This document shows positions 1,549-20,348 of a stretch of 20,348 nt of DNA, one piece after another. Each line of letters opens with the position of its first letter. Positions within the stretch are counted from its first letter, which is position 1. Position numbers and translations under genes: made by a program. The notes beneath the pieces are model-generated. The model saw only the letters and a list, made by a program, of their open reading frames with translations. It was not told the origin of the DNA and did not search any database. Origin of the DNA: a virus (taxonomy: Duplodnaviria; Heunggongvirae; Uroviricota; Caudoviricetes); the IMG/VR virus record IMGVR_UViG_2728369592_000008; one strand, given 5' to 3'.

Positions 1549-1609
1549 ACGGTCAGATGGGGGTACTTATGGGGGTATTTGCTGTTCGGTTTAGTGGAGG
1601 TACCCCCAA

Positions 1610-3456: not shown

Positions 3457-3887
3457 TGGAAAAGAAAAACCGCCCATTACAGGCGGCTAATTCAGATATT
3501 CGTGTATCTGATGTTACGCCCCTTACAAAATCCCTTCAAGCACCAAAGCGCACACCGAAAAAGCATCGTGCCAGAGTCTATATGCTGCGTACTGGTATAG
3601 AGGGATGGACAGAAAATGACATTCTTCGCTACTGCCGTCTGTCTTCTGGTCGTAACTATGCAACAGAGTTAGAACGCCAGCTTGGAATCACTCTGGAGCG
3701 TATCGACGAAAAGAATCCTGATGGTATCGGAACACACCTTCGCTACCGTTTCTCCTGCCGTGGTGATGTTCTGAAAGTGATCACTCATATTAACCATCTT
3801 GCGAACATAAATGATCACAACGGACTTTCTCAGCAGGAAATTGCCGACATTCTGAAACTCTACCCGGACGCGTTTAACGCCGCCTAA
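3456..3887 (+). CDS. Hypothetical protein (basic N-terminus); start overlaps the alpA stop
   Basis: 143 aa ORF, ATG overlapping the alpA TGA (translational coupling). No family recognised. Confidence 0.55.
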   Translation: MEKKNRPLQAANSDIRVSDVTPLTKSLQAPKRTPKKHRARVYMLRTGIEGWTENDILRYCRLSSGRNYATELERQLGITLERIDEKNPDGIGTHLRYRFSCRGDVLKVITHINHLANINDHNGLSQQEIADILKLYPDAFNAA

Positions 3888-3899
3888 CGGAGACTGAAA

Positions 3900-4733: not shown

Positions 4734-4908
4734 GCCAACAGGAACACCACAACCACAAAAACGCTACAAAGATGCCCACGGAGCACTCGTTACTGTCGAA
4801 AGCGTGTCTCACAACCGAGTGACGTTTTATCGCGACGGGTATCAATCGCCATGCGTACAACCGCTGGCGCGTTTCATGAAGGAGTTCGCGGAGGTTAACA
4901 AATGCTAA
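4726..4908 (+). CDS. Small hypothetical protein (60 aa)
   Basis: ATG at 4726 preceded by GGAGGTGG (4714-4721); it is the in-frame internal start of the listed 4639-4908 ORF and overlaps the end of the upstream gene. Confidence 0.45.
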   Translation: MSKPTGTPQPQKRYKDAHGALVTVESVSHNRVTFYRDGYQSPCVQPLARFMKEFAEVNKC

Positions 4909-5969: not shown

Positions 5970-6156
5970 CTCAATTAATACCCCTCGCCTTACGTCCGCA
6001 CTTCAATTAATCGAGCAAGCAGCGGCTGTCCTGGTTGCTGTCAGTCTTTCGGCTGAAGAAATGGACGCTGCTGATGTCGTGGATGCGATTAAAGCGTGCT
6101 CATCTTTGGTTAACGATGCCCGTGCCGAGCTGGTAATTCTTGGGGGTGAAAAATGA
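5962..6156 (+). CDS. Small hypothetical protein (64 aa)
   Basis: ATG 5962 preceded by a G-rich RBS, overlaps upstream stop; part of a chain of coupled small ORFs. Confidence 0.45.
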   Translation: MNNSINTPRLTSALQLIEQAAAVLVAVSLSAEEMDAADVVDAIKACSSLVNDARAELVILGGEK

Positions 6157-6416
6157 ATATCAACTTAATTTATCGTCATCCGTGTGAGCTGGAAATTGAA
6201 TCATTGCTGGGGCGTGAAGAGCCATATCCAGACACATTCACTCCCGCAGATTGCGCGACTGAACGGCTTACCAGAGCGCGCACAGGTCTGGTTCATGTGA
6301 TGAATGAGATTGTTCCCTCGGTGGGAGGGGAACAGGCGACAGTAATCAATAGCTGGCTACAAAAAGTTACCTCCCTGATAGATATCGGTTTAATCGATGT
6401 GGAGAGTGCGAAATGA
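6153..6416 (+). CDS. Small hypothetical protein (87 aa)
   Basis: ATGA start/stop overlap with the upstream ORF. Confidence 0.5.
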   Translation: MNINLIYRHPCELEIESLLGREEPYPDTFTPADCATERLTRARTGLVHVMNEIVPSVGGEQATVINSWLQKVTSLIDIGLIDVESAK

Positions 6417-6634
6417 CCAACATCCAGCTCATTGAAGCGCAATGTCGCATCGAACAGGTTCAGACTGTTTTAGGGTTCTGGCTTGAAGGGGCCAGCCCCA
6501 GCAACAGAGACAAGTTAATGATTGGCGCGGTTATGTCACTGCTTAATGGCGTACCAGAAGCTATTCAGGAAGCGGACGAATTGTTGGGCAAATATGAGTT
6601 ACAGAATCATTCAGGCGAGGCGAAACATGAATAA
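6413..6634 (+). CDS. Small hypothetical protein (73 aa)
   Basis: ATGA start/stop overlap with the upstream ORF. Confidence 0.5.
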   Translation: MTNIQLIEAQCRIEQVQTVLGFWLEGASPSNRDKLMIGAVMSLLNGVPEAIQEADELLGKYELQNHSGEAKHE

Positions 6635-7229
6635 TTTCTTAACTTTCCATGCAGAAGCAACGCCTGACGGCGTAAACATCATGTACCGCAGCAACGATGG
6701 CATGACAGAACGCGTTGAGGCCATCTCATATATTGATGCCGTAAATCGTCTGGATGCCGGGGATTATGACGATAAACCAGATGAAGGTATGTCAATACAT
6801 CTCGCTATTGCCGATGGCGGCAACCAGGGATATTTCGATTACACATCACAGCATAACGTCATTATGTGGAGATGGCTGATCGCAACAGTATTCATGCTGG
6901 AAATGAGAGAGGAAAACGGCACTGTCAGCATCATTGATGATACTGGCAATCCTTCCGAAGTGGCTGTTTATTCCAACGGCATCGTCGCCATGCCGCTGTA
7001 TCCAGTAGCAGAGCGCCTCGCTATGGCAAACAACATTGAGGGCGCGATGATAGAACGTTTTGGCATCGAGTCTGGCACAGAACGCGCCATCATTTTCTAC
7101 AGAGCCATGATGGATGTGGAACAAGGAGCACTGACTCCATTTGGTCGTGAAACGCTTGCTGAACTTCACAACAGCTTTATAGCTGAACTGAATGAAAACG
7201 GCATGCCAGCGGAACCAGTGACGCACTGA
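6627..7229 (+). CDS. Hypothetical protein (200 aa)
   Basis: In-frame ATG at 6627 overlapping the previous stop; the listed 6522 start would overlap the upstream gene by ~110 nt and is less likely. Confidence 0.5.
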   Translation: MNNFLTFHAEATPDGVNIMYRSNDGMTERVEAISYIDAVNRLDAGDYDDKPDEGMSIHLAIADGGNQGYFDYTSQHNVIMWRWLIATVFMLEMREENGTVSIIDDTGNPSEVAVYSNGIVAMPLYPVAERLAMANNIEGAMIERFGIESGTERAIIFYRAMMDVEQGALTPFGRETLAELHNSFIAELNENGMPAEPVTH

Positions 7230-7239
7230 GGATGGAGCC

Positions 7240-7581
7240 ATGATTACTAAAAATTTCCGACTGAATGCGCTGGCAAATAAGTATGCGTCGGCACTGTATA
7301 ACCACATTACCTCCACCAGCGGCGGGGACTATTTCATGGTTGATGCGGACGGCGAGGCCGTCCGTGTGGAAATCGTCAATGGAGTAAAAGGCGTTCGCAG
7401 CCTGATCGATAGCTACACACTGGCAGCCATGAAAGTGTTCTACCCGCAGTGGGAAACCGTGGGGATCGAGCTTCTTGAACGTTGCGTCACTAAGGACGGA
7501 TTGACTGACGTCGGGCGTGAGATATGGCAAAGCATGGTTAATGACATGGGCGCAACTGTAGCGGGAGGTTCTCATGCGTGA
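7240..7581 (+). CDS. Hypothetical protein (113 aa)
   Basis: ORF with GGATGGAG RBS upstream; co-oriented with neighbours. Confidence 0.5.
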   Translation: MITKNFRLNALANKYASALYNHITSTSGGDYFMVDADGEAVRVEIVNGVKGVRSLIDSYTLAAMKVFYPQWETVGIELLERCVTKDGLTDVGREIWQSMVNDMGATVAGGSHA

Positions 7582-7945
7582 AAATGCAGAAATGGCGCTT
7601 AGCTCCGCAATCGGAGAGCAGGTGGCAAAGATTGCTGGTGCTGTGTGGATTCATAACCTTCATTCTACTGGTGAAGAGAAAATGGTAATTCAGACGCCAG
7701 AGGGACGCACCATTACTACATCTCTGAAGCCGTCAGATGTTTGTGATCTGATTTGCGCATTCATGTACCCAGCAATGAGGACTGTCCACGGCGATAAGTG
7801 GAAACTTGCGACAACCGCTGAATTTGATATGTGGCTAAACAATGATGGCATGCTGACTGATTACGGAATAACCAAGTGGCAGATGCTGGTTAGCCATATC
7901 GCAAACGCTATAGACCACGTGGGGTACGGTGATGCGAAACATTGA
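7574..7945 (+). CDS. Hypothetical protein (123 aa)
   Basis: ORF with GGGAGG RBS; overlaps neighbours at both ends. Confidence 0.5.
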   Translation: MRENAEMALSSAIGEQVAKIAGAVWIHNLHSTGEEKMVIQTPEGRTITTSLKPSDVCDLICAFMYPAMRTVHGDKWKLATTAEFDMWLNNDGMLTDYGITKWQMLVSHIANAIDHVGYGDAKH

Positions 7946-10688
7946 TCTTATCCGTCAGGTTATCAGTGCGTCTGAAAACAACTGGCCTCATGTGCTGGGC
8001 TGCCTGAACATAAATGTCCCTGACTCTCCGCGCCGTCATGCTCCCTGCCCTGCATGTGGGGGCAAAGATCGATTCCGGTTCGATGACAACGGGCGCGGTA
8101 GCTTCATCTGTAATCAGTGCGGCGCTGGTGATGGGCTGGATTTAATTAAACGCGTAAATAACTGCGACACAACAGAGGCGGCGCTTCTTGCCGCTGATGT
8201 TCTGGGTATTGATTACCGGACAACGGAAACACCAGAAGCCACCAGCCAGAAACGGGAACAACTGGAAACCGAGCGCCAGCGACGCGAACAGGAGCGCCTG
8301 AAAAGGGCAGAGAAGGACGAACAACAAAGACGGGATACGTTTTCCCGTCAGTTTGATGACATGCGCAGAAAGGCTGTAAACGGCAAATCTGATTATCTGG
8401 TTGCGAAAGGGGTAGGTGATTTTACATTCCCCGTGTTGCCCGATGGATCTCTGTTGCTGGCGCTGGTGGATAAATCCGGCGCAGTAACAGCAGCACAGAC
8501 TATTACCTCACATGGTGAAAAAAGACTCCTGACAGGTTCAGCAAAGCGGGGGGCATATCACGCCATAAACGCACCAGAAACAACACAGAGCATCTTAATC
8601 GCAGAAGGTCTGGCAACGGCATTATCTGCCCATTTAATTCGTCCAGAGGCGCTGACAGTGGCGGCGATTGATGCCGGGAACCTGTTATATGTCGCCCAGG
8701 TACTGCGGGATAAATTTCCTTCAGCACAAATCATCATTGCTGCGGATAACGACCACAGCGAAGGAAGACAAAACACGGGGAGAATAGCAGCAGAAAAAGC
8801 AGCTTTATCTGTTTCTGGATGGGTGGCATTACCCCCGACAGATCACAAAGCAGACTGGAATGATTACCACCAAAAACACGGCATTAAATGCGCCACAGAA
8901 GCGTTCAATAAGTCAATGTACCAACCACAGGGTAATGGCGTGAAACAGGAGCCACAGACCATTGAGGGAAGCGATTTTAAGGTTATGGATACCGACCCAC
9001 TGAAACCAAGAATAGAAAGCCGCGAGGATGGTATTTATTGGGTATCTCCGAGAGCTGACAGCCAGAGTGGAGAAATCATCAATAACGAAAGCTGGTTATG
9101 TTCTCCGTTAAGCGTTATCGGTACTGGCAGAGACGATAAAGACCAGTATCTCATTCTTCGCTGGCTGTCGTTTGGTTCTGAAACGCCGACAACCGCTGCC
9201 ATTCCACTGGCTGATATTGGTGAACGTGAAGGATGGCGCACACTTAAAGCTGGTGGGGTAAATGTCACGACCAAAAGCAGCCTCAGAGCAATACTGGCAG
9301 ACTGGCTACAACGCAGTGGCTCTCGTGAATTGTGGCGTGTTGCTCATGCCACTGGCTGGCAATGCGGAGCGTACATCATGCCTGATGGGGAAATCATCGG
9401 AACACCTGAAAATCCTGTGCTGTTCAGCGGGAGAAGCTCAGCCGCAGCCGGATATACCGTCTCAGGGAGCGCGAAAAGCTGGCGTGATAACGTGGCGCGT
9501 CTGGCCTTTGGTAACTATTCAATGATGACCGGGATCGGCGCAGCACTGGCAGCGCCATTGATTGGGCTGGTGGGCGCTGACGGGTTCGGCATTCATTTCT
9601 ATGAGCAGTCGAGCGCAGGTAAGACCACCACGGCAAACGTGGCGAGCAGCTTATACGGCAACCCTGATTTACTGCGGCTGACGTGGTACGGAACCGCGCT
9701 GGGGCTGGCAAATGAGGCCGCCGCCCACAATGACGGACTAATGCCGCTTGATGAAGTTGGTCAGGGCGCTGATCCTGTCAGCGTTTCACAGTCTGCCTAT
9801 GCGTTATTTAACGGTGTAGGGAAACTGCAAGGCGCTAAAGATGGTGGAAACCGGGATCTAAAACGCTGGCGTACAGTGGCAATCAGCACCGGAGAAATGG
9901 ATTTAGAAACATTTATCGCTACTTCCGGGCGAAAAACCAAAGCCGGGCAACTGGTGCGACTGCTGAATATTCCGTTGAGTAAAGCAGTACGCTTTCACGA
10001 TTACCAGAACGGAAAACAGCACGCAGACGCACTGAAAGACGCTTACCAGCATCACCACGGCGCGTCCGGGCGTGAGTGGATTAAATGGCTGGCACACCAC
10101 CAGCAACAGGCTATTAAAACCGTTCGTGATTGCGAAAGCAGATGGAGAAGCCTGATCCCATCCGATTATGGTGAGCAGGTTCACCGTGTAGCCGCGCGAT
10201 TTGCCATTCTAGAGGCCGCATTGTTGTTAGGCGAGGTTGTAACAGGCTGGGATGCTCAGACATGCCGTGATGCGATACAGCACAGCTATAACGCATGGTT
10301 GCGCGAGTTCGGCACAGGTAACAAAGAGCATCAGCAGATTATTGAACAAACGGAGGCATTTCTTAATGCCTATGGGCTTAGCCGTTTTGCACCATTTCCA
10401 TACAGCCCGGCAGATTTGCCCATCAAAGATTTAGCCGGATACCGTCAGCGTGGAGAACATGACGAAAGCCCAATGATTTTCTACACATTCCCGGCCACAT
10501 TTGAAAAGGAGATCGCATGTGGTTTCAACGCAAAACAGTTTGCTGAAGTGTTGAAAAAAGCCGGGATGCTAACCCCACCAAACAGCGGTCGTGGATACCA
10601 AAGAAAATCACCACGTATTCAGGGACGACAAATAAACGTTTATGTACTCAATTACCAGCCAGGAGATTATAACTCATCTGAAGAATGA
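7932..10688 (+). CDS. Phage/satellite primase-helicase (zinc-ribbon + Toprim primase + P-loop NTPase)
   Basis: ~918 aa. Cys-rich zinc-binding motif PCPACGGKDRFRFDDNGRGSFICNQCG; Toprim-like acidic motifs (IAEGLATALS, IIIAADNDHSEGRQNTG); Walker A SSAGKTT near nt 9610. Architecture as in P4 alpha-like replication proteins. ATG 7932 preferred over the GTG at 7929. Confidence 0.85.
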   Translation: MRNIDLIRQVISASENNWPHVLGCLNINVPDSPRRHAPCPACGGKDRFRFDDNGRGSFICNQCGAGDGLDLIKRVNNCDTTEAALLAADVLGIDYRTTETPEATSQKREQLETERQRREQERLKRAEKDEQQRRDTFSRQFDDMRRKAVNGKSDYLVAKGVGDFTFPVLPDGSLLLALVDKSGAVTAAQTITSHGEKRLLTGSAKRGAYHAINAPETTQSILIAEGLATALSAHLIRPEALTVAAIDAGNLLYVAQVLRDKFPSAQIIIAADNDHSEGRQNTGRIAAEKAALSVSGWVALPPTDHKADWNDYHQKHGIKCATEAFNKSMYQPQGNGVKQEPQTIEGSDFKVMDTDPLKPRIESREDGIYWVSPRADSQSGEIINNESWLCSPLSVIGTGRDDKDQYLILRWLSFGSETPTTAAIPLADIGEREGWRTLKAGGVNVTTKSSLRAILADWLQRSGSRELWRVAHATGWQCGAYIMPDGEIIGTPENPVLFSGRSSAAAGYTVSGSAKSWRDNVARLAFGNYSMMTGIGAALAAPLIGLVGADGFGIHFYEQSSAGKTTTANVASSLYGNPDLLRLTWYGTALGLANEAAAHNDGLMPLDEVGQGADPVSVSQSAYALFNGVGKLQGAKDGGNRDLKRWRTVAISTGEMDLETFIATSGRKTKAGQLVRLLNIPLSKAVRFHDYQNGKQHADALKDAYQHHHGASGREWIKWLAHHQQQAIKTVRDCESRWRSLIPSDYGEQVHRVAARFAILEAALLLGEVVTGWDAQTCRDAIQHSYNAWLREFGTGNKEHQQIIEQTEAFLNAYGLSRFAPFPYSPADLPIKDLAGYRQRGEHDESPMIFYTFPATFEKEIACGFNAKQFAEVLKKAGMLTPPNSGRGYQRKSPRIQGRQINVYVLNYQPGDYNSSEE

Positions 10689-10710
10689 GCTTCTTCATGT
10701 GCGTAGAAAA

Positions 10711-10828
10711 GGTGTTGGTTCAGTTGGTTCAGTTGGTTCAATTTGTAAAGTGTATTGTTTTATAAGGATTTTATTCTTTTTATTGAACCAACACTGAACC
10801 AACAACACGGTATTTTGAACCAACACAA
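10711..10828 (+). repeat. Iteron cluster, putative origin of replication (three direct GTTGGTTCA repeats, AT-rich spacer, three inverted copies)
   Basis: GGTGTTGGTTCAGTTGGTTCAGTTGGTTCA at 10711-10740, AT-rich 10751-10781, then TTGAACCAACA-type repeats at 10782-10828; immediately downstream of the primase stop. Confidence 0.65.
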
Positions 10829-10874
10829 TGTGACTGAATTGATGCGCACAACACCTGGCTGGCATCAGAGAGTG

Positions 10875-10950
10875 TTTTACGAGACTTTCGTAAAATCCTG
10901 TGTACAAGGGCGTGACGTTTTTGAAAGTGAGCACTACGAAATTTTCGTAG
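10875..10950 (+). promoter_or_regulatory. Two palindromic sites sharing a TACGAAA/TTTCGTA half-site
   Basis: TTTTACGA-N5-TCGTAAAA at 10875-10895 and the perfect palindrome CTACGAAA-T-TTTCGTAG at 10934-10950. Confidence 0.4.
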
Positions 10951-11143
10951 TTCAAAAAACAGCCTCTGAGAAGTTGTTATGCCTGTTCAGCAAACCATCC
11001 GCATAGCTGATCGCGAATCAAATTACCAATGGAGCCAGAAGCAAGGGCAGAACTGAAAAGCGCCTGCCGTGAAGAGTAATGCGACACCATAAATATAGTT
11101 TTTAGAGTCCATAAAAAACCTGTCAAAACCTGACACACAGAAC

Positions 11144-11177
11144 GATGCCACCAGCTACTGAGCGGTGGCATTTTTTT
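11144..11177 (+). terminator. Rho-independent terminator closing the primase transcription unit
   Basis: Stem TGCCACC (11146-11152) / GGTGGCA (11164-11170) followed by TTTTTTT (11171-11177). Confidence 0.65.
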
Positions 11178-11273
11178 GTGCTATTTGTTTCATATTTTGC
11201 AATTACTATGATGAATATTGCGATTTGTGAAACTATAATAACTGTTGTTTTATACAGTTCTAAGGGGGGCGTT

Positions 11274-11435
11274 ATGGCTATTTCAGTAAAGCCGGTATTG
11301 ATAAGTGAGAAGCAAATGGAAGCGATAAAGAAAATTCAGGAAGAGCAGCGTAAAAAATCAGGAATTGGAGTAGCGCCAACTCTGCATGAAATTGCACGAG
11401 GGTTAATAGATAAGGCGCTGGCAGGCTGTATGTGA
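11274..11435 (+). CDS. Small hypothetical protein (53 aa), first gene of the cargo operon
   Basis: ATG 11274 preceded by AAGGGGGG; the listed longer ORF (from 11145) would read through the terminator and is rejected. Confidence 0.45.
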   Translation: MAISVKPVLISEKQMEAIKKIQEEQRKKSGIGVAPTLHEIARGLIDKALAGCM

Positions 11436-11451
11436 AAATGGATGGCATCGC

Positions 11452-11913
11452 ATGGAACTAAAATTTATTGATAACCCTGTGCGATTACAGGCCTTTCTTA
11501 ACGAGCCAGGCAATACCGAAAATATTGTTGAGCCGGGGCACACGTACTACATCAAGCCTGATGCGGTATATCTCGGCATCTACGAAGGATTGGTGCTGGC
11601 TGGCGTTCATGAAGTGCGTAACTTCTGGCATAGCATTGTTGAATGCCATGCGGTGTACGACCCCGGATTCCGTGGTGAATATGCACTGCAAGGGCATCGA
11701 TTATTCTGCAAATGGCTTCTCGAAAACTCACCATTCCTTAACAGCATTACCATGGTTCCTGACACCACCAAATACGGACGGGCAATTATCCGTTTGCTTG
11801 GCGCTACCCGTGTTGGTCACCTTGATGATGCTTATATCAGATGTGGTAAACCCGTCGGCGTAACGCTTTATCAGTTAACTCGGCAACAATATAAGGAATT
11901 CAGCGAATGTTAA
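11452..11913 (+). CDS. Hypothetical protein (153 aa); possibly a P22 gp14-like virion protein by position
   Basis: ORF directly upstream of, and overlapping, the next gene; the call is by position and size only. Confidence 0.5.
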   Translation: MELKFIDNPVRLQAFLNEPGNTENIVEPGHTYYIKPDAVYLGIYEGLVLAGVHEVRNFWHSIVECHAVYDPGFRGEYALQGHRLFCKWLLENSPFLNSITMVPDTTKYGRAIIRLLGATRVGHLDDAYIRCGKPVGVTLYQLTRQQYKEFSEC

Positions 11914-12584
11914 TTACCCACATAGCTCATAAACATCTCAATCGTGCCGTATACGAAAAAGGCGGTGATGGTGGTGCCTCTAAAGCTCAGGCGAAGGCCC
12001 AGCAGCAGGCAATTGATTTGCAGCGCGAGCAGTGGAATACGGTGATGAATAATCTCAAGCCGTATGCAGAAGTCGGATTGCCTGCTTTACAACAACTACA
12101 AGGACTGATGACTCTGGAAGGGCAGAATAAAGCCGCGAATGATTTCTTTGGTTCTGGTTTATATAAAACACAGGCAGATCAGGCCCGTTATCAGAACCTT
12201 GTCTCAGCAGAAGCTACCGGGGGGCTTGGCTCAACAGCTACCAGTAACCAGTTATCTTCCATTGCGCCCATGCTTTATAACAATTGGCTTAGTGGGCAAA
12301 TGCAAAATTATGGAAACCTGCTAAATGTCGGGATGAATGCGGCATCAGGGCAGGCAACAGCAGGGCAAAACTACGCCAATAATACCGGGCAACTCTTGCA
12401 GGGGCTTGGCGCTATTCGTGCAGGTCAGGCGCAGCAGCCATCCAGTCTTGCGCGTGGTATTGGTGGGGCGGCATCAGGCGCTTTAGCGGGTGCGCAACTT
12501 GGTTCCGTTGTTCCGGGTATAGGTAATGTCGCCGGGGCTATTGGTGGTGGGCTTATTGGTCTTGTTGGGGGGCTTGGATTCTAA
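11907..12584 (+). CDS. Gly/Gln-rich protein with C-terminal glycine-zipper hydrophobic tail; possibly P22 gp7-like ejection protein
   Basis: 225 aa; RBS AAGGAA; C-terminus GIGGAASGALAGAQLGSVVPGIGNVAGAIGGGLIGLVGGLGF; size and position match the first ejection protein of P22-like phages (from memory). Confidence 0.5.
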   Translation: MLITHIAHKHLNRAVYEKGGDGGASKAQAKAQQQAIDLQREQWNTVMNNLKPYAEVGLPALQQLQGLMTLEGQNKAANDFFGSGLYKTQADQARYQNLVSAEATGGLGSTATSNQLSSIAPMLYNNWLSGQMQNYGNLLNVGMNAASGQATAGQNYANNTGQLLQGLGAIRAGQAQQPSSLARGIGGAASGALAGAQLGSVVPGIGNVAGAIGGGLIGLVGGLGF

Positions 12585-14005
12585 TGGCGACATGGCAACT
12601 TGGCGGGCTGCCTAGCATGGCACCGCAAAATGATAATGCTCCTCGTTCTTCCGTTCCTCAGCCTGTGCAGTATCAGCAGCAGCCAAACGTAGGTTTAATG
12701 GCGCTACAGGGGCTAAGAGGCGTTGCTGAGATTAATCAGCAGGCACGTCAACAACAGCGTAAAGCAGAGTTTCAGAAAGCATATGCCGGGGCTTTTGAGT
12801 CTGGAGACAGAAACAAAATGCGCAGTCTTATTTCTGAGTATCCAGAAGAATTTGAAAGCGTTCAGAAAGGGATGGGCTTTATTGATGACGACCAGAGAAA
12901 TTCTATTGGTCATCTTGCGACTAGTGCTCAAATCGCATCTTCGCTCGGAACTGGGGCATTTGGAAAATTCATAGCAGATAACGAAGATGAAATGCGTCGC
13001 TTGGGAATTTCTCCTGAGTCTGTTGCCGAAATGCATGTTAATGATCCACAGGGATTCCAGCGGCTTGCTGGTAGTATGGCACTGTTTTCTCTCGGTCATG
13101 AGAAGTATTTCGATATCAAAGATCAAATGGAAGGTCGGGATATTGAGCGTGGCAAGTTGGCAGAAACAATCCGCAGCAATCAGGCTGGCGAAGCACTTCA
13201 GGCGAGAGGGCAGGATATTAGCCGAGCAAATGCGTTAACGTCAGCATATGCACCAACAGCAGCAATGCAGAATTACAATCAGTACGCTCAAATGTTAAAG
13301 GAGGATCCAGAGGGGGCGGCGGCATTTGCGGCAGCGGCTGGAATTAATACAAACGCCAAAAAATTAATGAGTGTTAGAGAAAACGATGATGGCACTGTCA
13401 CAAAATACTACACAGACGGAAGTGAAGAGCAGGGAAAACTAAACCAGCCAATATCTGGAGATGGGTTTCGTCCAATAGCTTTGCCAACAGCCCAAAAGAT
13501 CATGGAAAAGTCGCCAGAAGGGGCTAAAAAAGCTGCTGGATTTGCATACAGGGTTAGGGATGCTCTTGATTCAATAGATACACTGAAAGACCAGCTTAGC
13601 CCACAGCGAGTGGCGATCATTAATAATGCTTTGGGTAATGGGACGCTGGCTAACTTAACGCTCAGCCCAACAGAGCAGCAATACGTTGTTAATGCTAATG
13701 ACGCAATAATGGCAATACTCCGTCAGGAAACAGGGGCAGCTATCGTACCTGCTGAAATGTCAAAATATTATCAAATGTATTTCCCTCAGCCTGGCGACTC
13801 CACAAAAACCATTGATACCAAGCGCCGGAAGATGGAAAACCAGTTCAATTCGCTGAAAGCTGCTTCTGGTCGAGCTTATGATGCTTTGCGGGTTATTTCA
13901 GCAGTTGACAGAGGAACTTCTTCTTCGTCGCAGACATTGCCGCAATCTGAGCAGGTATCACAGCCAGCAGCCAGCAGTAACTTTTCTTCACTATGGGGTG
14001 ATTAA
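12584..14005 (+). CDS. Hypothetical protein (473 aa); possibly P22 gp20-like DNA-transfer/ejection protein
   Basis: ATG overlaps upstream stop (TAATGG); size and order consistent with the middle ejection protein of P22-like phages. Confidence 0.5.
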   Translation: MATWQLGGLPSMAPQNDNAPRSSVPQPVQYQQQPNVGLMALQGLRGVAEINQQARQQQRKAEFQKAYAGAFESGDRNKMRSLISEYPEEFESVQKGMGFIDDDQRNSIGHLATSAQIASSLGTGAFGKFIADNEDEMRRLGISPESVAEMHVNDPQGFQRLAGSMALFSLGHEKYFDIKDQMEGRDIERGKLAETIRSNQAGEALQARGQDISRANALTSAYAPTAAMQNYNQYAQMLKEDPEGAAAFAAAAGINTNAKKLMSVRENDDGTVTKYYTDGSEEQGKLNQPISGDGFRPIALPTAQKIMEKSPEGAKKAAGFAYRVRDALDSIDTLKDQLSPQRVAIINNALGNGTLANLTLSPTEQQYVVNANDAIMAILRQETGAAIVPAEMSKYYQMYFPQPGDSTKTIDTKRRKMENQFNSLKAASGRAYDALRVISAVDRGTSSSSQTLPQSEQVSQPAASSNFSSLWGD

Positions 14006-16110
14006 TGGCTAAAGCATGGAAAGATGTTATCGCCTCTCCACAGTATCAGGCGTTAGCACCAGAACAAAAAGCGCAGGCTCAGGAGCAATACTTCAATGAA
14101 GTCGTTGCCCCGCAAGCCGGAGAAAGTGTAGAGCAGGCTAAGCAGGCTTTTTATGCTGCCTATCCACTACCATCAACGAATGAAATAGACCGAGCCCAAT
14201 CAGCAACTCAAAATATTCAACATACATCATCTGATAATTCTCTTGCGTCAGGGTATGCAAAGTTAGCTACTCAGCAAAGAGAGGGGCTTGAGCGTTCAGC
14301 AGAACAGGGAGCCAGCCTTGGGGCTGCGATGCGCGATGCTATAACAGGCGAAAGCCGAATGACTCCAGAGATGGAGAGACTGCAAAATGTCGACCTTGCC
14401 CCAGAGTTAACCTCACTCAGCATGGATGCTCTAAAAGCTCGATGGTCTCAACTTTTCGGCTCTGACGCATCTCAGGAAAAGATTCTTCAGAGCATGGGAG
14501 CGAAATTAAGGCAGGATGAGAAGGGTAACACTATCGTTTCCCTGCCATCCGGTGATTATGCTCTGAACAAGCCGGGTTTATCGCCGCAAGACGTGGCATC
14601 GTTTCTGGCTAATGCGCTGGCGTTTACACCAGCGGGCAGGGCCGGAACGGTGCTGGGGGCCATAGGGAAATCAGCAGCTACAGATTTAGCACTACAGGGA
14701 GCCACCAGCCTCGCTGGTGGAGAAGATATTGATCCGTTACAAACGGTAATTTCTGCTGGCATTGGTGGTATTGGTAAGGGGCTGGAAAATACAGCGAGTG
14801 CGGTTTCGAGGGCTGTTCGTGGTGATATGTCGCCTGAAGCAAAGGCTGCTGTCGACTTTGCATCGGAAAGAAATCTGCCGTTAATGACCAGTGACATGCT
14901 GAAAGATAAAACCTTTATGCAGAGTCAGGCTCAGACATTAGGCGAAAGAGTTCCTTTTTTTGGAACCGGTAAGAATCGGCTGAATCAACAACAAGCACGA
15001 GAAAATTTAGTCAGAACATTTAGCGATGGTCTGGGTGGCATTTCTGATAAACAGCTTTATGAATCTGCGACTAAAGGGCAACAAAAATTCATTGAGGCAG
15101 CAGGAAAGCGATATAACCGCATAATTGACGCTATGGGGGATACCCCTGTCGATCTCTCAAACACGGTAAAAGCTATCGACAATCAGATTGCTGTGTTAAG
15201 CCGCCCGGGTAAATCTCAGGATAGAGCCGCGGTAAAAGTCTTGCAGCAATTTAAAGACGATATCACCAGCGGACCAAATGACCTGCGTCTGGCGAGGGAA
15301 AACAGAACCGATCTTCGAAAGCGGTTTATGGCGTCATCTGACACTGTTGATAAAGATACGCTCCAGAAAGCCAGCGATATTATCTACAAGGCATATACGG
15401 CGGATATGAAAAAAGCCGTAGCCAAAAATCTTGGAGCAGACGAAGCCATTAATATGGCAAGGGTTGATCGCTCATGGTCTAAATTCAATGACATGATGGG
15501 AAGAACGCGCGTTCAAAAGGCAATAGCCAGCGGCAAGGCCACGCCTGAGGATGTAACAAAACTCGTTTTTAGCCAAAGCCCATCAGAACGTTCTCAGCTT
15601 TACAGGCTTCTGGATGACAATGGTAGGCAAAACGCACGAGCAGCCATAGTTCAGAATGCTGTAGATAAGGCGACTGATCCGTCTGGAAATATCAGTGTTG
15701 AGAAGTTTATTAATGCGTTACACCGGAACAGGAAGCAATCAGCAACTTTCTTTAAAGGCGTACATGGAAAGGAACTGGACGGCGTTATTAAATACCTCAA
15801 CGATACAAGACACGCGGCAAAAGCGAACGTTCAAAACTTAAATGGTCAGCAGCTTTATGGATTGTTAGTTGGTGGTGGCATCATAAACGCAGCAGTATTA
15901 GCGGGGATGCTAAAAACGGCTGCGTTTGTTGTTCCTGCTGCTGGTGCCGTAGGCGGAGCCGCGAAGGCATACGAAAGCCCTGTTATACGAAATGCCTTGT
16001 TACGTTTGGCAAATACGCCAAAAGGTAGCACAGCATATGACAGAGCGATCAGTACGGTCACACAATCGCTCACCAGAGTCGCACAGGCATCACAAAAAGA
16101 AGCTCAATAA
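14005..16110 (+). CDS. Hypothetical protein (701 aa) with C-terminal hydrophobic hairpin; possibly P22 gp16-like DNA-transfer/ejection protein
   Basis: ATG overlaps upstream stop; Ala/Gln/Lys-rich; hydrophobic stretch LLVGGGIINAAVLAGMLKTAAFVVPAAGAVGGAA near the C-terminus. Confidence 0.5.
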   Translation: MAKAWKDVIASPQYQALAPEQKAQAQEQYFNEVVAPQAGESVEQAKQAFYAAYPLPSTNEIDRAQSATQNIQHTSSDNSLASGYAKLATQQREGLERSAEQGASLGAAMRDAITGESRMTPEMERLQNVDLAPELTSLSMDALKARWSQLFGSDASQEKILQSMGAKLRQDEKGNTIVSLPSGDYALNKPGLSPQDVASFLANALAFTPAGRAGTVLGAIGKSAATDLALQGATSLAGGEDIDPLQTVISAGIGGIGKGLENTASAVSRAVRGDMSPEAKAAVDFASERNLPLMTSDMLKDKTFMQSQAQTLGERVPFFGTGKNRLNQQQARENLVRTFSDGLGGISDKQLYESATKGQQKFIEAAGKRYNRIIDAMGDTPVDLSNTVKAIDNQIAVLSRPGKSQDRAAVKVLQQFKDDITSGPNDLRLARENRTDLRKRFMASSDTVDKDTLQKASDIIYKAYTADMKKAVAKNLGADEAINMARVDRSWSKFNDMMGRTRVQKAIASGKATPEDVTKLVFSQSPSERSQLYRLLDDNGRQNARAAIVQNAVDKATDPSGNISVEKFINALHRNRKQSATFFKGVHGKELDGVIKYLNDTRHAAKANVQNLNGQQLYGLLVGGGIINAAVLAGMLKTAAFVVPAAGAVGGAAKAYESPVIRNALLRLANTPKGSTAYDRAISTVTQSLTRVAQASQKEAQ

Positions 16111-16128
16111 CTGGTAGCCATGGATGGC

Positions 16129-16743
16129 TTAGATATCTCTGCTGTCTCCATTAGGAAATAAAAGATAATATGGATTTGCCTTTCTTGCTCTCCTTGCTTC
16201 ACCTGGATACCTGTTAGTCAGTAGTTTGCATAATGAGCAGAGAACAACACTCAAGAAAATTCCGAATGAGAAGATCAATATCTCACCAAAAATCAATGGC
16301 GATATTAAATTTTCAGGATTTAATGATAAGTCAATGTTAAAAACATATTGAGCAATACCAGTAAGTATCAATAATATAATCCCTATGGAATACATTGCTG
16401 TTTCCCAAACATCAGACAGTCTATTTTTGAATTGTTCGCTGGAGTAGTAGTTTGTTATAAAGTCAGAAAAATCACTCTCATATGCATCATCTTTAGGTGA
16501 TGTTAGAAATCCTCTGTCTCTCCATACCTTCTCCCAATTAGTCGATTCTTTTTTTAAGGAAAAATAAATATGTATTGCCAAAAGGATAGCCAAAATTGGT
16601 GTTAGCTCTAAAAAATAGAATGTTATGGAATAAATAATACTGCCATGTTCAAACTCATCTGGGACTATCATGTATGCACAAAAATAAATTGAAAAGTACA
16701 CCATGCAGATAGTTAGCAATTCTTTAGTATCTTTTCTGCTCAC
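16129..16743 (-). CDS. AT-rich polytopic inner-membrane protein (about four predicted TM helices); candidate superinfection-exclusion or defence effector
   Basis: 204 aa, GTG start with AAGGGGG RBS; hydrophobic segments at roughly aa 9-27, 36-61, 116-135, 147-176; visibly lower GC than flanking genes; convergent with the upstream operon. Confidence 0.55.
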   Translation of the reverse strand: MSRKDTKELLTICMVYFSIYFCAYMIVPDEFEHGSIIYSITFYFLELTPILAILLAIHIYFSLKKESTNWEKVWRDRGFLTSPKDDAYESDFSDFITNYYSSEQFKNRLSDVWETAMYSIGIILLILTGIAQYVFNIDLSLNPENLISPLIFGEILIFSFGIFLSVVLCSLCKLLTNRYPGEARRARKANPYYLLFPNGDSRDI

Positions 16744-16960
16744 ACCAACCCCCTTTAGCGTTGTTTAGAATGGCAATCATCATATATCCAAGACATGGCA
16801 TTTGGTACATAGCTTGGGTCGGGATTTCAAATCCGATCCCCGTTGATGGGGCCGTTACAGTACGCGCATATCCGCTTTATGTGAAACAGGAAGATTTTTC
16901 TGATATCACTGCCACAGCAAAACACCAATTTCGTGACCAGTACGCGCGCGAGGGGTATCA

Positions 16961-16979
16961 GTTGCAAAAATTTTGCAAC
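16961..16979. promoter_or_regulatory. Perfect 19 bp palindrome GTTGCAAAA-A-TTTTGCAAC flanked by GACCAGTACGC direct repeats
   Basis: Palindrome at 16961-16979; GACCAGTACGC at 16934-16944 and 16987-16997; related CAGTACGCGC motifs near 16858 and 17225. Confidence 0.45.
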
Positions 16980-17612
16980 TACGTCCGACCAGTACGCACA
17001 CGATGGCGGGGGATACCATGAAACTGTTCTCTACACGAGACAGAGTGGTGGTGATGTGTTGATTATCGGCGTATATGCGCACAGGACGCGCTATGACGAT
17101 GTTTTATGCGGGTACACCAATCACATGTATCTGATGTGATAAATCGTGTTACATGACATCTCATGTTGTGCTGGTGGTTATCACGACGTTCTGAATCTGG
17201 CCTTTGCCTGATATTTTGCGACAAGTACGCGCGCGTAGCATCGAAATTATCGGATGGCGTATGCTGCTGGCAATATGAAGACCGATAGTATTAACCGAAA
17301 AGCGATTAAGGAGTGCCAACTTTTCAGTAGAGAAACTAGCCAGCATAGGAAAATGTAGAAATTACCCAATTAATAGGTAAAAGTTATTGACACAGCCTGT
17401 AGTGGATAACGATATGAATAAAAACCACATATAGTGGTTTTTCGTGAGTGATGATAGTATCTATGTTAGTTTCCTAAGTAACTGTGCATTGACATGTGGA
17501 TAACTTCGGATAGAGTTACAGGCAACCGAGCCCGATCCTCTGTTTCTCCGCCGCCGATTTCAGGCATGTGAGTTTCACGGTCGGGCCTTTTATTATCTTT
17601 TGTTTCGCCACT

Positions 17613-18590
17613 ATGATTGCCGCAAAGCCTCATAAGGACTATCACGAATTGCTAGGATTGCTACTTGAACGTGGCATGATTATCAATGATCGAAATCGTG
17701 CGATACGTAAGCTGTCGCAGGTTGGATATTATCGATTGTCAGGTTTTTGGTACCCATCAAGAATTATTGCGACAACAGATAAAGGTCTTTCGTACAGAAC
17801 AGACCGATTTCTTGCTGGTACCAGTTTCGAGAAGACGTACGATCTATATCTTTTTGACAAAAAACTGCGTCTTTTGATGATTGATGCTATCGAAAGAATA
17901 GAGATTCATGTTCGTTCAGTCATCGCGCATGAGGTTGGTCGCAATGATCCACTTGCCTACATGTCATCAAAATACATTAATCCAAAATTCTCATCTGCCT
18001 TCGAGCATTGGGTGTATAAGCAAAAAGTAAAATTAGACGAAAGCAGAGATGACTGTATTGAATGGCATCGAAGCCAAGGCAAGGAGATTCCATTTTGGGT
18101 GGCGGTGGAGACCTGGGATTTTGGTCAGATGTCTAAATATTATGCGATGCTTAATGGTCATATGCAGGGGAAAATTATACGTCGTTTTGGCATTGATAAT
18201 AAGCAGACATTTGCAAAATGGTTGAAGTGCCTTAATCTCATAAGGAATCGTTGCGCTCACCATTCCAGAATATGGAATAGAAAGCATCCCCGAGTTCCAG
18301 TACCGGATAATGAATACTTTGACGGACTTAATCTCCATCCAGAGAGTTGCGAGAGGATTTTTAGCGCGATCTGTATTATCTGGTACTTAGTTAAACGACT
18401 TGGTCCGGGATCAACATGGCTTCGGCAAATTGCAGACCTTATTGACTCTAAACCAAATGTTCCCGGATGTGGATATGATTCAATGGGTTTACCTGCTAAA
18501 GGATTCCCACGAGAGAGATTCTCTCAGGACTTAGGTTTTGTTATCGCCGACAACGACCCTGTAGCTGAAGGGCGGAAAGGGAGCGATTGA
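17613..18590 (+). CDS. Abi_2-family abortive infection protein (AbiD/AbiF-like)
   Basis: Signature stretches match the family: KPHKDYHELLGLLLERGMIINDRNRAIRKLSQVGYYRLSGFWYP, LYLFDKKLRLLMIDAIERIEIHVRSVIAHEV, LIRNRCAHHSRIWNR. ATG 17613 preferred; the listed 17568 start adds 15 hydrophobic residues. Confidence 0.8.
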   Translation: MIAAKPHKDYHELLGLLLERGMIINDRNRAIRKLSQVGYYRLSGFWYPSRIIATTDKGLSYRTDRFLAGTSFEKTYDLYLFDKKLRLLMIDAIERIEIHVRSVIAHEVGRNDPLAYMSSKYINPKFSSAFEHWVYKQKVKLDESRDDCIEWHRSQGKEIPFWVAVETWDFGQMSKYYAMLNGHMQGKIIRRFGIDNKQTFAKWLKCLNLIRNRCAHHSRIWNRKHPRVPVPDNEYFDGLNLHPESCERIFSAICIIWYLVKRLGPGSTWLRQIADLIDSKPNVPGCGYDSMGLPAKGFPRERFSQDLGFVIADNDPVAEGRKGSD

Positions 18591-18619
18591 GCGATAAATA
18601 TCATTTATACACTGATCAA

Positions 18620-19060
18620 TTACTGAAGCAGCGTATTGATTCTTTTAATATTGTTACCCTGACGCTTCCACGCGCTGTAAATGTCTTTATCCCACGCTTT
18701 ACCAGCTTTTGTTTGGTAGCCTGCTTCATTGAGCCGTTCCGCTATCACACGCCCATTATCAAATCCCTGTCGGATGGTATCGGCAATGATCTTTATAACT
18801 GCCGTTTCGTTATATGGCTTTGGTGGGATGTTCGGCTTTCCGGCAATAAGCGACGCAGCGGCTTTTTCCATGCGCTCCACCAGCCCAAGCATTCGTGAAT
18901 CAATAGACTTTTCCGGCTGTCCCAGCTTCATGCGAATCGCATCAACAAGCCAGGAGGTTTTATCCCCTCCAGAAGCGAGAACAGACCGATTAAACTCATC
19001 CTGCAATTCAGATGGGATGCGGAACGCGACCAGATTAGATTTGCTCATTGCAAAGACCAT
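18620..19060 (-). CDS. Ribbon-helix-helix DNA-binding protein with C-terminal recombinase-type (catalytic-domain-less) DNA-binding module
   Basis: 146 aa; N-terminal SNLVAFRIPSELQDEFNRSVLASGGDKTSWLVDAIRMKL fits an RHH fold; C-terminal IADTIRQGFDNGRVIAERLNEAGYQTKAGKAWDKDIYSAWKRQ resembles the DNA-binding 'recombinase' domain of large serine recombinases. No clear RBS; start could be 19048. Confidence 0.55.
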   Translation of the reverse strand: MVFAMSKSNLVAFRIPSELQDEFNRSVLASGGDKTSWLVDAIRMKLGQPEKSIDSRMLGLVERMEKAAASLIAGKPNIPPKPYNETAVIKIIADTIRQGFDNGRVIAERLNEAGYQTKAGKAWDKDIYSAWKRQGNNIKRINTLLQ

Positions 19061-19077
19061 ATCAGTGAGTAATATCC

Positions 19078-19109
19078 ATACAGTATACCACTGTATAACA
19101 CTGTTATAC
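19078..19109. promoter_or_regulatory. Overlapping palindromes upstream of the RHH gene (candidate autoregulatory operators)
   Basis: ATACAGT-ATACC-ACTGTAT (19078-19096) and GTATAACA-C-TGTTATAC (19093-19109). Confidence 0.45.
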
Positions 19110-19157
19110 GCTCAAATATCAGCCAGAAAATAACGGACCAATCACAAAGCTATCGCT

Positions 19158-19286
19158 GTGTTGTTGGTTCAGAGCTGGGCTGTGTTGGTTCAAAATGAGT
19201 TGATGTTGGTTCAATATTTCAGAAAAAACACAATAAAAACAACGATCTTTACAAATTGAACCAACTGAACCAACTGAACCAACACC
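19158..19286 (-). repeat. Second iteron cluster, inverted copy of the ori cluster (crr-like cis replication site?)
   Basis: 19247-19286 is the exact reverse complement of the 40-mer at 10711-10750; three further TGTTGGTTCA copies at 19162-19215 across an AT-rich spacer. Confidence 0.6.
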
Positions 19287-19319
19287 TTTTTGCTTATCTA
19301 TATAATCTGAGAGGCAGAA

Positions 19320-19607
19320 ATGATAAGGGACAGGAAAGCTGAAGAACTGGAGTCAAAAGGGCTATACCGGAGAGCTGCCGCACGATGGGCAGAAGTCATG
19401 ATGCTGGCAGATGGCGATAAAGAACGTGAACATGCAGCAAACAGACGCTCTGAATGTATCCGTAAGGCGGCACGCCCACCAGCAACTACAGACAGATTCG
19501 GAGATTTAAGACAGGCAGTTAAGCGGACTCATTCGGCTCTTGGTATGGATGAGGAAGCGAGAGGGTATTTCAGGCGTTATCGCGATAAAGATTGCCAGAG
19601 ACAGTAA
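19320..19607 (+). CDS. PerC-family transcriptional activator-like protein
   Basis: 95 aa; N-terminal RKAEELESKGLYRRAAARWAEVM resembles PerC/Pch family activators carried on prophages; RBS GAGAGG upstream. Confidence 0.55.
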   Translation: MIRDRKAEELESKGLYRRAAARWAEVMMLADGDKEREHAANRRSECIRKAARPPATTDRFGDLRQAVKRTHSALGMDEEARGYFRRYRDKDCQRQ

Positions 19608-19868
19608 TGCTCTCTCTGTTTTGGCAAATTACCCCTCACTTTGAAGGGATCGGAGCTATAAAAATGGTGTTATCCGGCTTCCTGCATTGCAGGTTTTCGA
19701 AAGAATCAATGGGTTAGGTTATCGTGCAAATTTGCACTCTGCCAGCCAACGCAATTTCTCGTTGGCGGAAATATCAGGTATTTACTGAACGAACGGTCTA
19801 CCCGCCTGTTCAACTACCAGTTGTACATGGCTGCTTTATGTGCAAATGGTGGTGAGAGAAAATTGTTT

Positions 19869-19888
19869 GGGGGTACTTTTGGGGGTAT
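19869..19888 (+). repeat. GGGGGTACTTTTGGGGGTAT motif near attR, near-identical to the int-proximal motif at 1559-1578
   Basis: 19 of 20 positions identical to GGGGGTACTTATGGGGGTAT (1559-1578); both lie ~70-115 bp inside the island ends in the same orientation. Confidence 0.5.
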
Positions 19889-20348
19889 CTCCAAAGATGT
19901 AACTGGAAAATGTCTTTATATATCAATGTATTTTTATTGTTTGTTTTGTTCCTATTATCGCACCATTTAAATCAATAAGTTATCTCACATTTAAGTAAAC
20001 TACGTTCTCCTCTTGTGCCTTTGATTTTGCTCGCGTGCGCGGTGAAATGCCTGACTGAAAGGTGAGCATATCGACGAACCATTTCGAGAGTTTCCCATCT
20101 GCTCATTTTTAAGTGCAAGCAGGAAAACACCGGACTAAACCAATCAGCTGTTCGAAAATGGCAAGCGGATTAATATGCCATGGCGGGGCAGCTTTGAGCC
20201 GCACGCATGGGGTGTGGCAAGCCTGATGGATTTTGCTGTGCCTGTGGTGGCGTGTTTGCTGGTTTGGCTGTTGGTTAAACGCGAAAGTCATAATGCCAGG
20301 GGAATACCGCAGGGTGTTCAGGTTTTGCATAAAAAAGCCCACCATTAA

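Follow-up and report, generated by a model that had tools for sequence, protein, structure and literature searches.

Satellites that parasitize phages are known to employ tactics such as the theft of helper capsids, their resizing, the redirection of terminase and the building of heads of their own. The closest described relative of the locus considered here is EcCIMP1, a phage-inducible chromosomal island (PICI) of Escherichia coli MP1 (Pick, Stadel & Raivio, ISME J 2025, PMC11773190; GenBank OR778291), which excises only upon induction of the P22-like phage Kapi1, depends on both alpA and int, and undergoes transduction by Kapi1. The authors of that study draw a set of its genes as 'DNA transfer' and DUF2824 genes and suggest a role in packaging, leaving the packaging mechanism open; they give neither an identification with P22 genes 14-7-20-16 nor a pac site. 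Here we analyze a 20,348-nt stretch of DNA (henceforth the window), recorded in IMG/VR as a virus of the Caudoviricetes (IMGVR_UViG_2728369592_000008), which carries a five-gene operon at 11274-16110 with every gene on the plus strand. Sequence comparisons indicate that this operon is a real and intact set of the P22-type DNA-ejection genes 14-7-20-16, and that the cassette sits in an E. coli phage satellite of the published EcCIMP1 family, not in a phage. This suggests that the satellite equips the capsids that it takes from its helper with genome-delivery proteins of its own.

The genes of the operon are:

11274-11435, plus strand: leader open reading frame (ORF), 53 aa, a RefSeq gene of 162 nt that appears as an extended 96-aa version in the ORF list
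11452-11913, plus strand: gp14 homologue (DUF2824), 153 aa; PF11039, 2.3e-61; phrog_651, 2e-66
11907-12584, plus strand: gp7 homologue, ejection protein, 225 aa; P22_gp7 PF25688, 1.9e-72; phrog_598
12584-14005, plus strand: gp20 homologue, ejection protein, 473 aa; PF16928 (Inj_translocase), 5.7e-58, over residues 34-213; phrog_917, 1.2e-111, over the full length
14005-16110, plus strand: gp16 homologue, ejection protein, 701 aa; phrog_770 'DNA transfer protein', 1.9e-161, over residues 19-700

Three of the four gene junctions are overlaps (7, 1 and 1 nt), and 16 nt separate the leader ORF from the gp14 gene. An initial annotation, made from the letters of the window alone, had delimited the operon with these same coordinates and product sizes of 153, 225, 473 and 701 aa, and had assigned the four longer genes to P22 14-7-20-16. 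Profile searches for the P22-type ejection families matched all four products, and the results of Pfam, PHROG, BLASTP and tblastn together bear out the assignment of each, all being sequence members of the gp14 (DUF2824), gp7, gp20 and gp16 families. Identity to P22 gp14, gp7, gp20 and gp16 is 23, 56, 38 and 30%, respectively (BLASTP), while the gp14 homologue reaches 83% with its Kapi1 counterpart. In tblastn comparisons the 701-aa gp16 homologue aligns over its whole length with the part of Sf6 that is annotated as genes 12-13 (33% identity); its counterpart at the corresponding position in coliphages N7 and HZ41 shares 67% identity with it. A phmmer search of the four cassette proteins against PDB sequences gave no match. 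When set against the P22 annotation, the operon has the order 14-7-20-16 followed by a convergent SieA-like gene, in the manner of P22 sieA. The resemblance of the operon to the P22 ejection genes, as judged by these comparisons, is far beyond chance.

Entry of the ejection proteins into the P22 procapsid is scaffold-dependent, and the procapsid-binding regions have been placed in residues 21-154 of gp7 and the N-terminal 314 aa of gp20 (PMC8402733). Residues 37-172 of the island gp7 homologue are 70% identical to phage gp7, and the gp20 homologue combines a conserved N-terminal half with a mosaic C-terminal half; the procapsid-binding regions known from P22 thereby appear to be the best-conserved parts of island gp7 and gp20. 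The hydrophobic or glycine-zipper C-terminal segments that the initial annotation had noted in two of the products are also recognizable, one being the C-terminus of the gp7 homologue, which reads as glycine-rich, and the other a hydrophobic, glycine/alanine-rich C-terminal stretch of the gp16 homologue at residues ~617-649 (window 15855-15951).

The element that houses the operon is delimited by the following features:

1-1254: proA, at the start of the window
1369-1444, plus strand: tRNA-Thr (CGT) gene thrW, the integration target (ARAGORN, Rfam)
1428-1437, plus strand: attL core TCCTATTATC, identical to the published EcCIMP1 attachment (att) core (PMC11773190)
1610-2824, plus strand: P4-type tyrosine integrase (RefSeq annotation of an identical island; collinear with the EcCIMP1 integrase)
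3253-3456, plus strand: alpA-type regulator (phrog_66, phrog_2790)
7929-10688, plus strand: primase/helicase, the island replicase, with zinc ribbon, Toprim and DUF927 (Pfam; phrog_1139, 2.4e-178)
17568-18590, plus strand: AbiD/Abi_2 abortive-infection gene, cargo (PF07751, 2.3e-52; PADLOC AbiD, 8.4e-58)
19320-19607, plus strand: PerC-family regulator, cargo (RefSeq annotation)
19950-19959, plus strand: attR core TCCTATTATC, a direct repeat of attL

The TCCTATTATC repeats, two copies of which occur in the window against 0.01 expected, bound an 18.5-kb island at thrW (1428-19959), whose order is integrase, alpA, AntA/B antirepressor, ash region, small ORFs, primase, cassette, SieA-like gene, AbiD and PerC. 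Pfam and PHROG scans of the island ORFs recovered no capsid, portal, coat, scaffold, terminase, tail or lysis genes, which agrees with the earlier observation that no head or tail genes accompany the operon. The integration site between proA and yagU and the att core are those of EcCIMP1, and the two islands share a collinear backbone of int, alpA, a PM1773-like gene, AntA/B, DUF4222, ash, primase, leader ORF, gp14, gp7 and PerC. The core proteins are identical or nearly so: the alpA product is identical to the EcCIMP1 master regulator (WP_000035054.1), the 53-aa leader proteins do not differ, and gp14 and gp7 are 98.7% and 99.6% identical. In contrast, the gp20 homologues are 48% identical over the N-terminal part only, and the gp16 homologues, of 701 aa here and of 906 aa with an SLT domain in EcCIMP1, are unrelated by BLAST. 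The gene after gp16 is SieA-like here and encodes a lipoprotein in EcCIMP1, and the present island has AbiD but is without alpA_1. It is hence a new allelic member of the published EcCIMP1 family, in which the role of the cassette has not been published. Of the possibilities raised in the initial annotation, the one most in keeping with an att-bounded island that is collinear with the experimentally verified PICI EcCIMP1, the helper of which is P22-like, is a satellite that provides helper capsids with ejection proteins of its own. That annotation had not recognized the PICI context, the SieA-like gene or the copy of a pac segment in another part of the island.

As in Gram-negative PICIs at large (Fillol-Salom et al. 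2018, PMC6092414), there is a terminal integrase, alpA, a replication module, a length in the range of ~12-20 kb and att repeats. Taken strictly, however, the island departs from the classical definition in two respects. First, capsid, portal, tail, terminase and lysis genes are lacking, but gp7, gp20 and gp16 are virion-internal proteins of P22, and the island conforms here in a loose sense only. Second, its tRNA target is common to P22-like prophages, whereas the att site of a classical PICI is never occupied by a prophage (PMC6092414): in E. coli HS the complete P22-like prophage HS1 resides at thrW, followed by a second island with a P4-type integrase and BREX.

That thrW is the attachment site of both P22 and HS1 would also be expected if the cassette were without function, a piece of some P22-like prophage that had entered the island by recombination or decayed beside it. 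The 3' end of thrW (window 1399-1450) is 96% identical to P22 21293-21344, which holds the attP core at 21300-21322, and the island att core at 1428-1437 abuts the stretch homologous to that core. True remnants of this kind exist: at argW of O157:H7 EDL933 a genuine P22-like remnant, 26'-14-7-20', with a truncated needle gene and a short gp20, lies next to intS, and on account of such remnants partial DUF2824 matches are common in O157 genomes. Some islands, moreover, have lost gp14 and gp7 or have a stop in gp20. In the window, however, the cassette is placed inside the att repeats, between the origin and the cargo; gene 26 is missing from its upstream side, and immI and a tailspike gene are missing from its downstream side. 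The flanking P22-like genes or pseudogenes, the P22-type integrase and the signs of decay that would mark a defective P22-like prophage were not found.

The distribution of the cassette speaks to the same question. The island-type gp14 and gp7 pair was detected in 253 of 5,426 complete E. coli genomes, with the primase-to-gp14 junction preserved in 240 of these, and the EcCIMP1-type family is accordingly common, at roughly 4-5% of complete E. coli genomes. The ORFs of the four-gene cassette are intact in ~250 genomes, at no fewer than two integration sites. Nearly all of them belong to one of two haplotypes: that of the window, found in 179 genomes when counted together with the sieA-like gene, and that of EcCIMP1, found in 72. 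The two part ~160 nt into gene 20. Between yicC and dinD, an island that has a different integrase also houses the four-gene cassette; islands with gp20 and gp16 only occur at both integration sites, and likewise together with another replicase. With the leader ORF serving as probe, we recovered related islands in Citrobacter, with a four-gene cassette, and in Serratia, with a two-gene cassette, in both of which the ejection genes always lie directly behind the leader ORF and downstream of the replicase. A scan of GTDB enterobacterial species representatives with a gp7 profile and pattern, which is insensitive to the island gp7 clade, gave 29 loci, of which one was an island and 28 were ordinary P22-like prophages with genes 10 and 26 upstream, most of the prophage loci having a tailspike gene downstream.

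A further observation made with the leader ORF concerns Klebsiella michiganensis, where it precedes a 605-aa protein (phrog_7694, 2e-183) with regions resembling tape-measure and injection-transglycosylase proteins; the same locus encodes a 168-aa protein with a TerS-like N-terminus. These genes may constitute an equivalent module for a different type of helper.

Island gp7 and gp14 of Escherichia and Citrobacter form clades of their own. The island gp7 proteins are 75-79% identical across genera, no more than 61% identical to any phage or prophage gp7, and branch outside all of these. The ratio of nonsynonymous to synonymous substitution rates (dN/dS) between island copies is 0.06-0.15 for gp16 and 0.2-0.3 for gp20, and ~0.06-0.1 for gp14 and gp7 where the differences suffice; the cassette is under purifying selection. 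The gp20 and gp16 alleles of the window are ~90% identical at the nucleotide level to those of a complete P22-like prophage at argW of strain SF-468, and the gp20 of the MB10 island is 93% identical in amino acid sequence to SF-468 gp20. As judged from these similarities, gp20 and gp16 alleles are exchanged between islands and P22-like prophages. The N-terminus of gp20 follows the type of cassette: in two-gene islands it is phage-type (MATWQQGINSGG...), whereas four-gene islands have an island-specific version that accompanies gp14 and gp7 of the island type.

The recurrence of the arrangement at another site with another integrase and in Citrobacter and Serratia, the intact ORFs in ~250 genomes with dN/dS of 0.06-0.3, the island gp7 and gp14 clades that span genera, and the conserved promoter and leader gene that the operon has of its own all run counter to a functionless remnant, which we regard as very improbable and essentially excluded. 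The simple deletion remnant that the initial annotation had contemplated is rejected on the same grounds of other integrases and sites, other genera, separate clades and purifying selection; nor is the cassette confined to intact P22-like prophages, as that annotation would have expected of a remnant, given that islands carry it.

Together these comparisons lead us to a reading that we hold to be probable, if by no means secure: the operon would be the virion-protein (helper-exploitation) operon of an EcCIMP1-family PICI that parasitizes P22-like podophages and delivers its own ejection proteins. The window also holds the following sequences that are, or may be, related to packaging:

5050-5156, minus strand: 107-bp copy of nt 268-374 of a P22-type terS (blastn), candidate pac site
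5222-5241, plus strand: motif GTTTTNNGAGTCCATAAAAA, copy 1, inside 24 nt that are 100% identical to HS1/SF-468-type terS nt 142-165
11098-11117, plus strand: motif GTTTTNNGAGTCCATAAAAA, copy 2, upstream of the operon promoter
16890-16911, plus strand: second pac-like 22-mer, GAAGATTTTTCTGATATCACTG, after the sieA-like gene

The 107-bp segment is 86% identical to P22 gene 3 (terS) and 91-92% identical to terS of Bas106, Dewey, Louie, IME10, E212 and HZ41 (E 4e-35). It lies antisense within the 5' part of an 'ash family' ORF, and its homology to terS sets in exactly with base 1 of the 22-bp pac site of P22 and has sharp edges and unrelated flanks. All eight E. coli island variants compared, this window among them, have the segment. 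We propose on this evidence that it is a pac site of the island for helpers with a P22-type TerS; such helpers are therefore predicted from the island copy of the terS pac segment. Of the seven other E. coli variants compared, six also have the GAAGATTTTTCTGATATCACTG-type 22-mer after the cassette. The Serratia loci, and two of three Citrobacter loci, have a group of two to four pac-like 22-mers behind the cassette (~14-15.9 kb). As for GTTTTNNGAGTCCATAAAAA, which may be a second type of pac or a regulatory site, neither of its two copies in the window would be expected by chance (0 expected); further copies in the islands of Citrobacter and Serratia are found upstream of the promoter that precedes the leader ORF, as well as behind the cassette. 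No similarity to Kapi1 terS or pac was found in the E. coli islands compared. The TerS of Kapi1 is one that we take to resemble the Sf6 type, and the missing likeness would fit the very low transfer of EcCIMP1 by Kapi1.

Upstream of the cassette the following elements of replication and expression control can be recognized:

10714-10826: probable replication origin, with three direct and three inverted copies of GTTGGTTCA around an AT-rich spacer (repeat search)
11136-11180: terminator-like hairpin between the origin and the operon promoter
11234-11239, plus strand: TATAAT of the operon promoter (pattern search)
11242-11257, plus strand: CTGT-N8-ACAG, a predicted LexA-box-like operator (pattern search)

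The iterons of GTTGGTTCA sit immediately after the stop codon of the primase, and the assignment of this region as the probable origin follows from its position and iteron architecture. The promoter region 5' of the leader ORF is conserved from E. coli to Serratia islands; within it the CTGT and ACAG half-sites are kept in the E. coli, Citrobacter and Serratia islands while their spacer varies, and a palindrome, TGCAAT-N13-ATTGCG, covers the -35 region. The E. coli LexA box has the consensus TACTG(TA)5CAGTA, and the operator-like site suggests that the operon is under SOS/LexA control. Mimicry of a late promoter or qut site was considered and rejected, as blastn of the region upstream of the operon against P22, HS1 and Kapi1 gave only chance 12-14-mers. 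Homologues of the leader ORF head the ejection-gene cassettes in Citrobacter and Serratia. Its AlphaFold2 (AF2) model has an extended N-terminus followed by two helices (predicted local distance difference test score, pLDDT, 76), and Foldseek matches of this model to the ribbon-helix-helix proteins VapB, ParD and TCP all had E > 1 and are not significant; the leader ORF is possibly a ribbon-helix-helix regulator. Neither it nor the SieA-like protein matches a Pfam family.

The gene that follows the cassette bears on what the operon could do for the island:

16129-16743, minus strand: SieA-like inner-membrane protein, 204 aa, candidate superinfection-exclusion gene (homology, motif, synteny)

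This gene converges on the operon in the same slot and orientation as P22 sieA after gene 16. Its product has four hydrophobic segments and is 34% identical over 118 aa (E 2e-9) to the functional type-B SieA of prophage HS1; the motif RYPGEA...K, here NRYPGEARRARK, aligns with its counterparts in SieA of P22 and of HS1, and an invariant motif of the RYPxEA...K type (FxRYPxEAxxFNK) is the signature of SieA (Leavitt et al. 2024, PMC10883804). A Citrobacter homologue with 50% identity fills the sieA slot of a complete P22-like prophage. The match to phrog_7745 is weak (4.4e-4), and tblastn of the protein against 50,697 phage records found nothing, for which reason the homology rests on the pairwise, motif and synteny evidence. 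The island protein resembles the SieA types A-C of PMC10883804 in having the common motif and several transmembrane segments, and its gene follows gene 16 in the same place and direction. It differs in that its identity to types A and B is only 29-34% and extends over roughly half the protein, and in residing in a satellite, whereas the sieA genes examined in that study all belong to P22-like prophages. By sequence, 16129-16743 encodes a divergent SieA homologue in a satellite, with a putative function in exclusion. In EcCIMP1 the slot after gp16 holds an unrelated lipoprotein gene with a faint TraT-like match, and other variants have small membrane proteins there.

With a SieA-like gene and AbiD behind it, the cassette stands in what resembles a defence neighbourhood, and EcCIMP1 contributes to superinfection immunity. 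The whole could accordingly be an anti-phage module, in which the island homologues poison P22-like conduits or virions through mixed, non-functional assemblies, or in which they act inside the resident cell, jointly with the SieA-like protein, against incoming DNA. PADLOC reported no defence family for any cassette protein or for the SieA-like protein, AbiD alone being matched, so that a defensive cassette would represent a new system. Yet the titres of Kapi1 are unchanged by EcCIMP1 and give no sign of virion poisoning, SieA alone is enough for exclusion in P22 (PMC10883804), and EcCIMP1 has its immunity phenotype without a SieA-like gene. Further, four full-length proteins with purifying selection along their length and allele swaps with functional prophages look like working proteins and not decoys, and a LexA-type operator would silence the operon in resting cells, which is a poor design for exclusion. 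We hence consider this explanation unlikely; the repurposing of ejection proteins for exclusion, also raised in the initial annotation, is a live rival but a weaker one than delivery by the satellite.

Delivery by the satellite can be framed as a series of steps. It starts from the identity of the genes, the nature of the island, the type of helper, and the conservation, selection and allele exchange documented here or in the literature, to which expression control, use of pac, incorporation into capsids and the benefit are added as proposed steps. Initially a P22-like helper would induce alpA, and the island would excise, replicate by means of its own primase and iteron origin and leave in helper particles, as the published experiments show for the sister island EcCIMP1 and as homology indicates here. 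The SOS response may derepress the operon through the LexA-box-like operator, in step with induction of the helper prophage. The helper terminase would begin headful packaging of island concatemers at 5050-5156, and island gp7, gp20 and gp16, aided by gp14, would enter helper procapsids via their conserved scaffold/procapsid-binding regions. Upon ejection, the island proteins would form a trans-envelope conduit through which DNA passes into the next cell. In P22, ejection proteins that have diverged widely from its own can take their place (PMC10883804).

The likely benefit would be access to cells from which ordinary P22-like particles are excluded, lysogens of the helper in particular. According to published work on P22, SieA blocks injection, generalized transducing particles included, and escape from SieA maps to the C-terminal regions of gp16 and gp20 (PMC10883804). 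Evasion of SieA is a likely benefit because the parts of gp20 and gp16 at which exclusion is aimed, their C-terminal ones, are precisely those that are mosaic here. In the gp16 homologue the segment aligned with the SieA-escape positions of P22 gives way to the hydrophobic stretch; of these positions, G532 is unchanged and P546 is replaced by K, which is suggestive only and not evidence of resistance. A second possible benefit would be independence from defective ejection genes of the helper.

This second benefit borders on another explanation, under which the island set is a back-up for P22-like prophages that are defective or mismatched, enabling even a crippled helper to yield infectious particles for the island. 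Damaged resident prophages do exist, gp16 being frameshifted in SF-468 and the O157 EDL933 remnant being truncated; heterologous ejection proteins work in P22 (PMC10883804); and an 'insurance' role has been demonstrated in EcCIMP1 for alpA_1, which replaces the helper excisionase (PMC11773190). However, a back-up leaves the island-specific divergence of gp7 and gp14 and the two-gene variants unexplained. It also needs the same incorporation into helper capsids, and thus overlaps with delivery by the satellite without excluding it. As an account of its own it appears improbable to us.

Several points weigh against the satellite-delivery reading. The expression, packaging and ejection of the island proteins are steps that we infer. 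The LexA-box-like site consists of the core motif only and matches the consensus at 14 of 20 positions. The pac 22-mer of the island has seven mismatches to P22 pac (five of them within 17 aligned nt) and several to the sole aligned terS equivalent of an E. coli phage, to which it is nonetheless closer than to P22. Transfer of EcCIMP1 by Kapi1 is very low, at ~5e3 particles/ml, and Kapi1 titres after induction are unaffected by EcCIMP1 (PMC11773190). Because many islands carry gp20 and gp16 alone, gp14 and gp7 must be dispensable for the role of the module; in enterotoxigenic E. coli (ETEC) H10407 the gp20 gene has an internal stop; and part of the dN/dS signal could date from the residence of the alleles in phages. 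Evasion of SieA, finally, is a benefit that we purely infer, and the island itself carries a SieA-like gene.

One can go further and envisage gp7, gp20 and gp16 as a private set that would be loaded into helper-built capsids upon SOS induction, with packaging steered by a stolen pac segment and with mosaic C-termini of gp20 and gp16 that let the particles get past SieA-type blocks at the inner membrane and reach helper lysogens. This more specific proposal is possible but doubtful. Under it, the gp14, gp7 and gp20 N-terminal alleles would be co-evolved and island-specific, and the backbone would accept other 'injection' modules, such as the tape-measure/transglycosylase-like protein and TerS-like gene of Klebsiella michiganensis.

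The remaining parts of the island include two RNAs in the ash region:

5283-5360, plus strand: isrK-like small RNA (Rfam gathering-score match, 67.1 bits)
5423-5510, plus strand: C4 antisense (immunity) RNA (Rfam gathering-score match, 79.5 bits)

Both fall within the annotated 355-aa 'ash family' ORF (4902-5969), the start of which is probably set too far upstream because its Ash domain begins only at residue 106. Near the right end, a 60-nt stretch (window 19659-19718) is 85% identical to Kapi1 13227-13286, within the anti-repressor gene of that phage. As regards cargo, the related Serratia islands have RnlAB or Abi_2 where this island has AbiD, and the EcCIMP1 counterpart of PerC has been characterized (PMC11773190). 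The family thus carries both defence (AbiD) and virulence-regulator (PerC) cargo.

In the literature searched, we found no description of satellite-encoded ejection proteins as such, nor of the full 14-7-20-16 set, the cross-genus island lineage, the copy of the pac segment, the LexA-like operator or the SieA homologue in these islands. Should the more specific proposal hold, these satellites would be the first family demonstrated to furnish a genome-delivery apparatus of their own; the carriage of envelope-opening proteins would add a further layer of piracy, not described as such, to the known tactics of satellites. The findings give testable answers to the role of these genes and to packaging, both of which were left open by the EcCIMP1 study, and the system offers a natural experiment on the covariation of SieA and ejection proteins, a matter left open by Leavitt et al. 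2024 (PMC10883804).

Compared with phages, the cassette is most like that of P22, and also of Sf6 (genes 11-13), HK620, CUS-3 and Kapi1, in its four homologues, their order, their tight coupling and the slot for a convergent exclusion gene. It shares with P22-like phages the mosaic and variable nature of gp20 and gp16 (PMC10883804), but island gp7 falls beyond the full range that gp7 of enterobacterial phages covers. Neighbouring gene 26, immI and tailspike genes are absent, so that the location is not that of the P22 late operon; the surroundings are instead the primase, origin and leader ORF upstream, and the SieA-like gene, AbiD, PerC and attR downstream. Unlike the P22 genes, which belong to a late transcript antiterminated by Q/gp23, the island operon has its own promoter and leader ORF.

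Among satellites, the position of the operon downstream of the replication module recalls operon I of the pathogenicity islands found in Staphylococcus aureus (SaPIs) and the PICI modules that encode TerS, CpmAB, Ppi and Rpp or, in capsid-forming PICIs (cf-PICIs), capsids. SaPI operon I is under SOS/LexA control according to Ubeda et al. 2007, as cited in PMC6092414, and such control is probable here from the operator-like sequence. In holding a copy of a helper packaging site, here a candidate pac, the island is comparable to cos-carrying PICIs. It differs from the known PICI modules in that those provide terminase, capsid-size or capsid-forming proteins and this one ejection proteins. With P4-like satellites it shares a P4-type integrase, a Toprim/DUF927 alpha-like primase, a C4-type immunity RNA and an ash/icd region; Pfam and PHROG scans of all island ORFs found no sid, psu or delta, and no specific search for a cos site was made. 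To judge from their sequences, the helper-specific parts of the island point to P22-like pac phages, and not P2, as its helpers.

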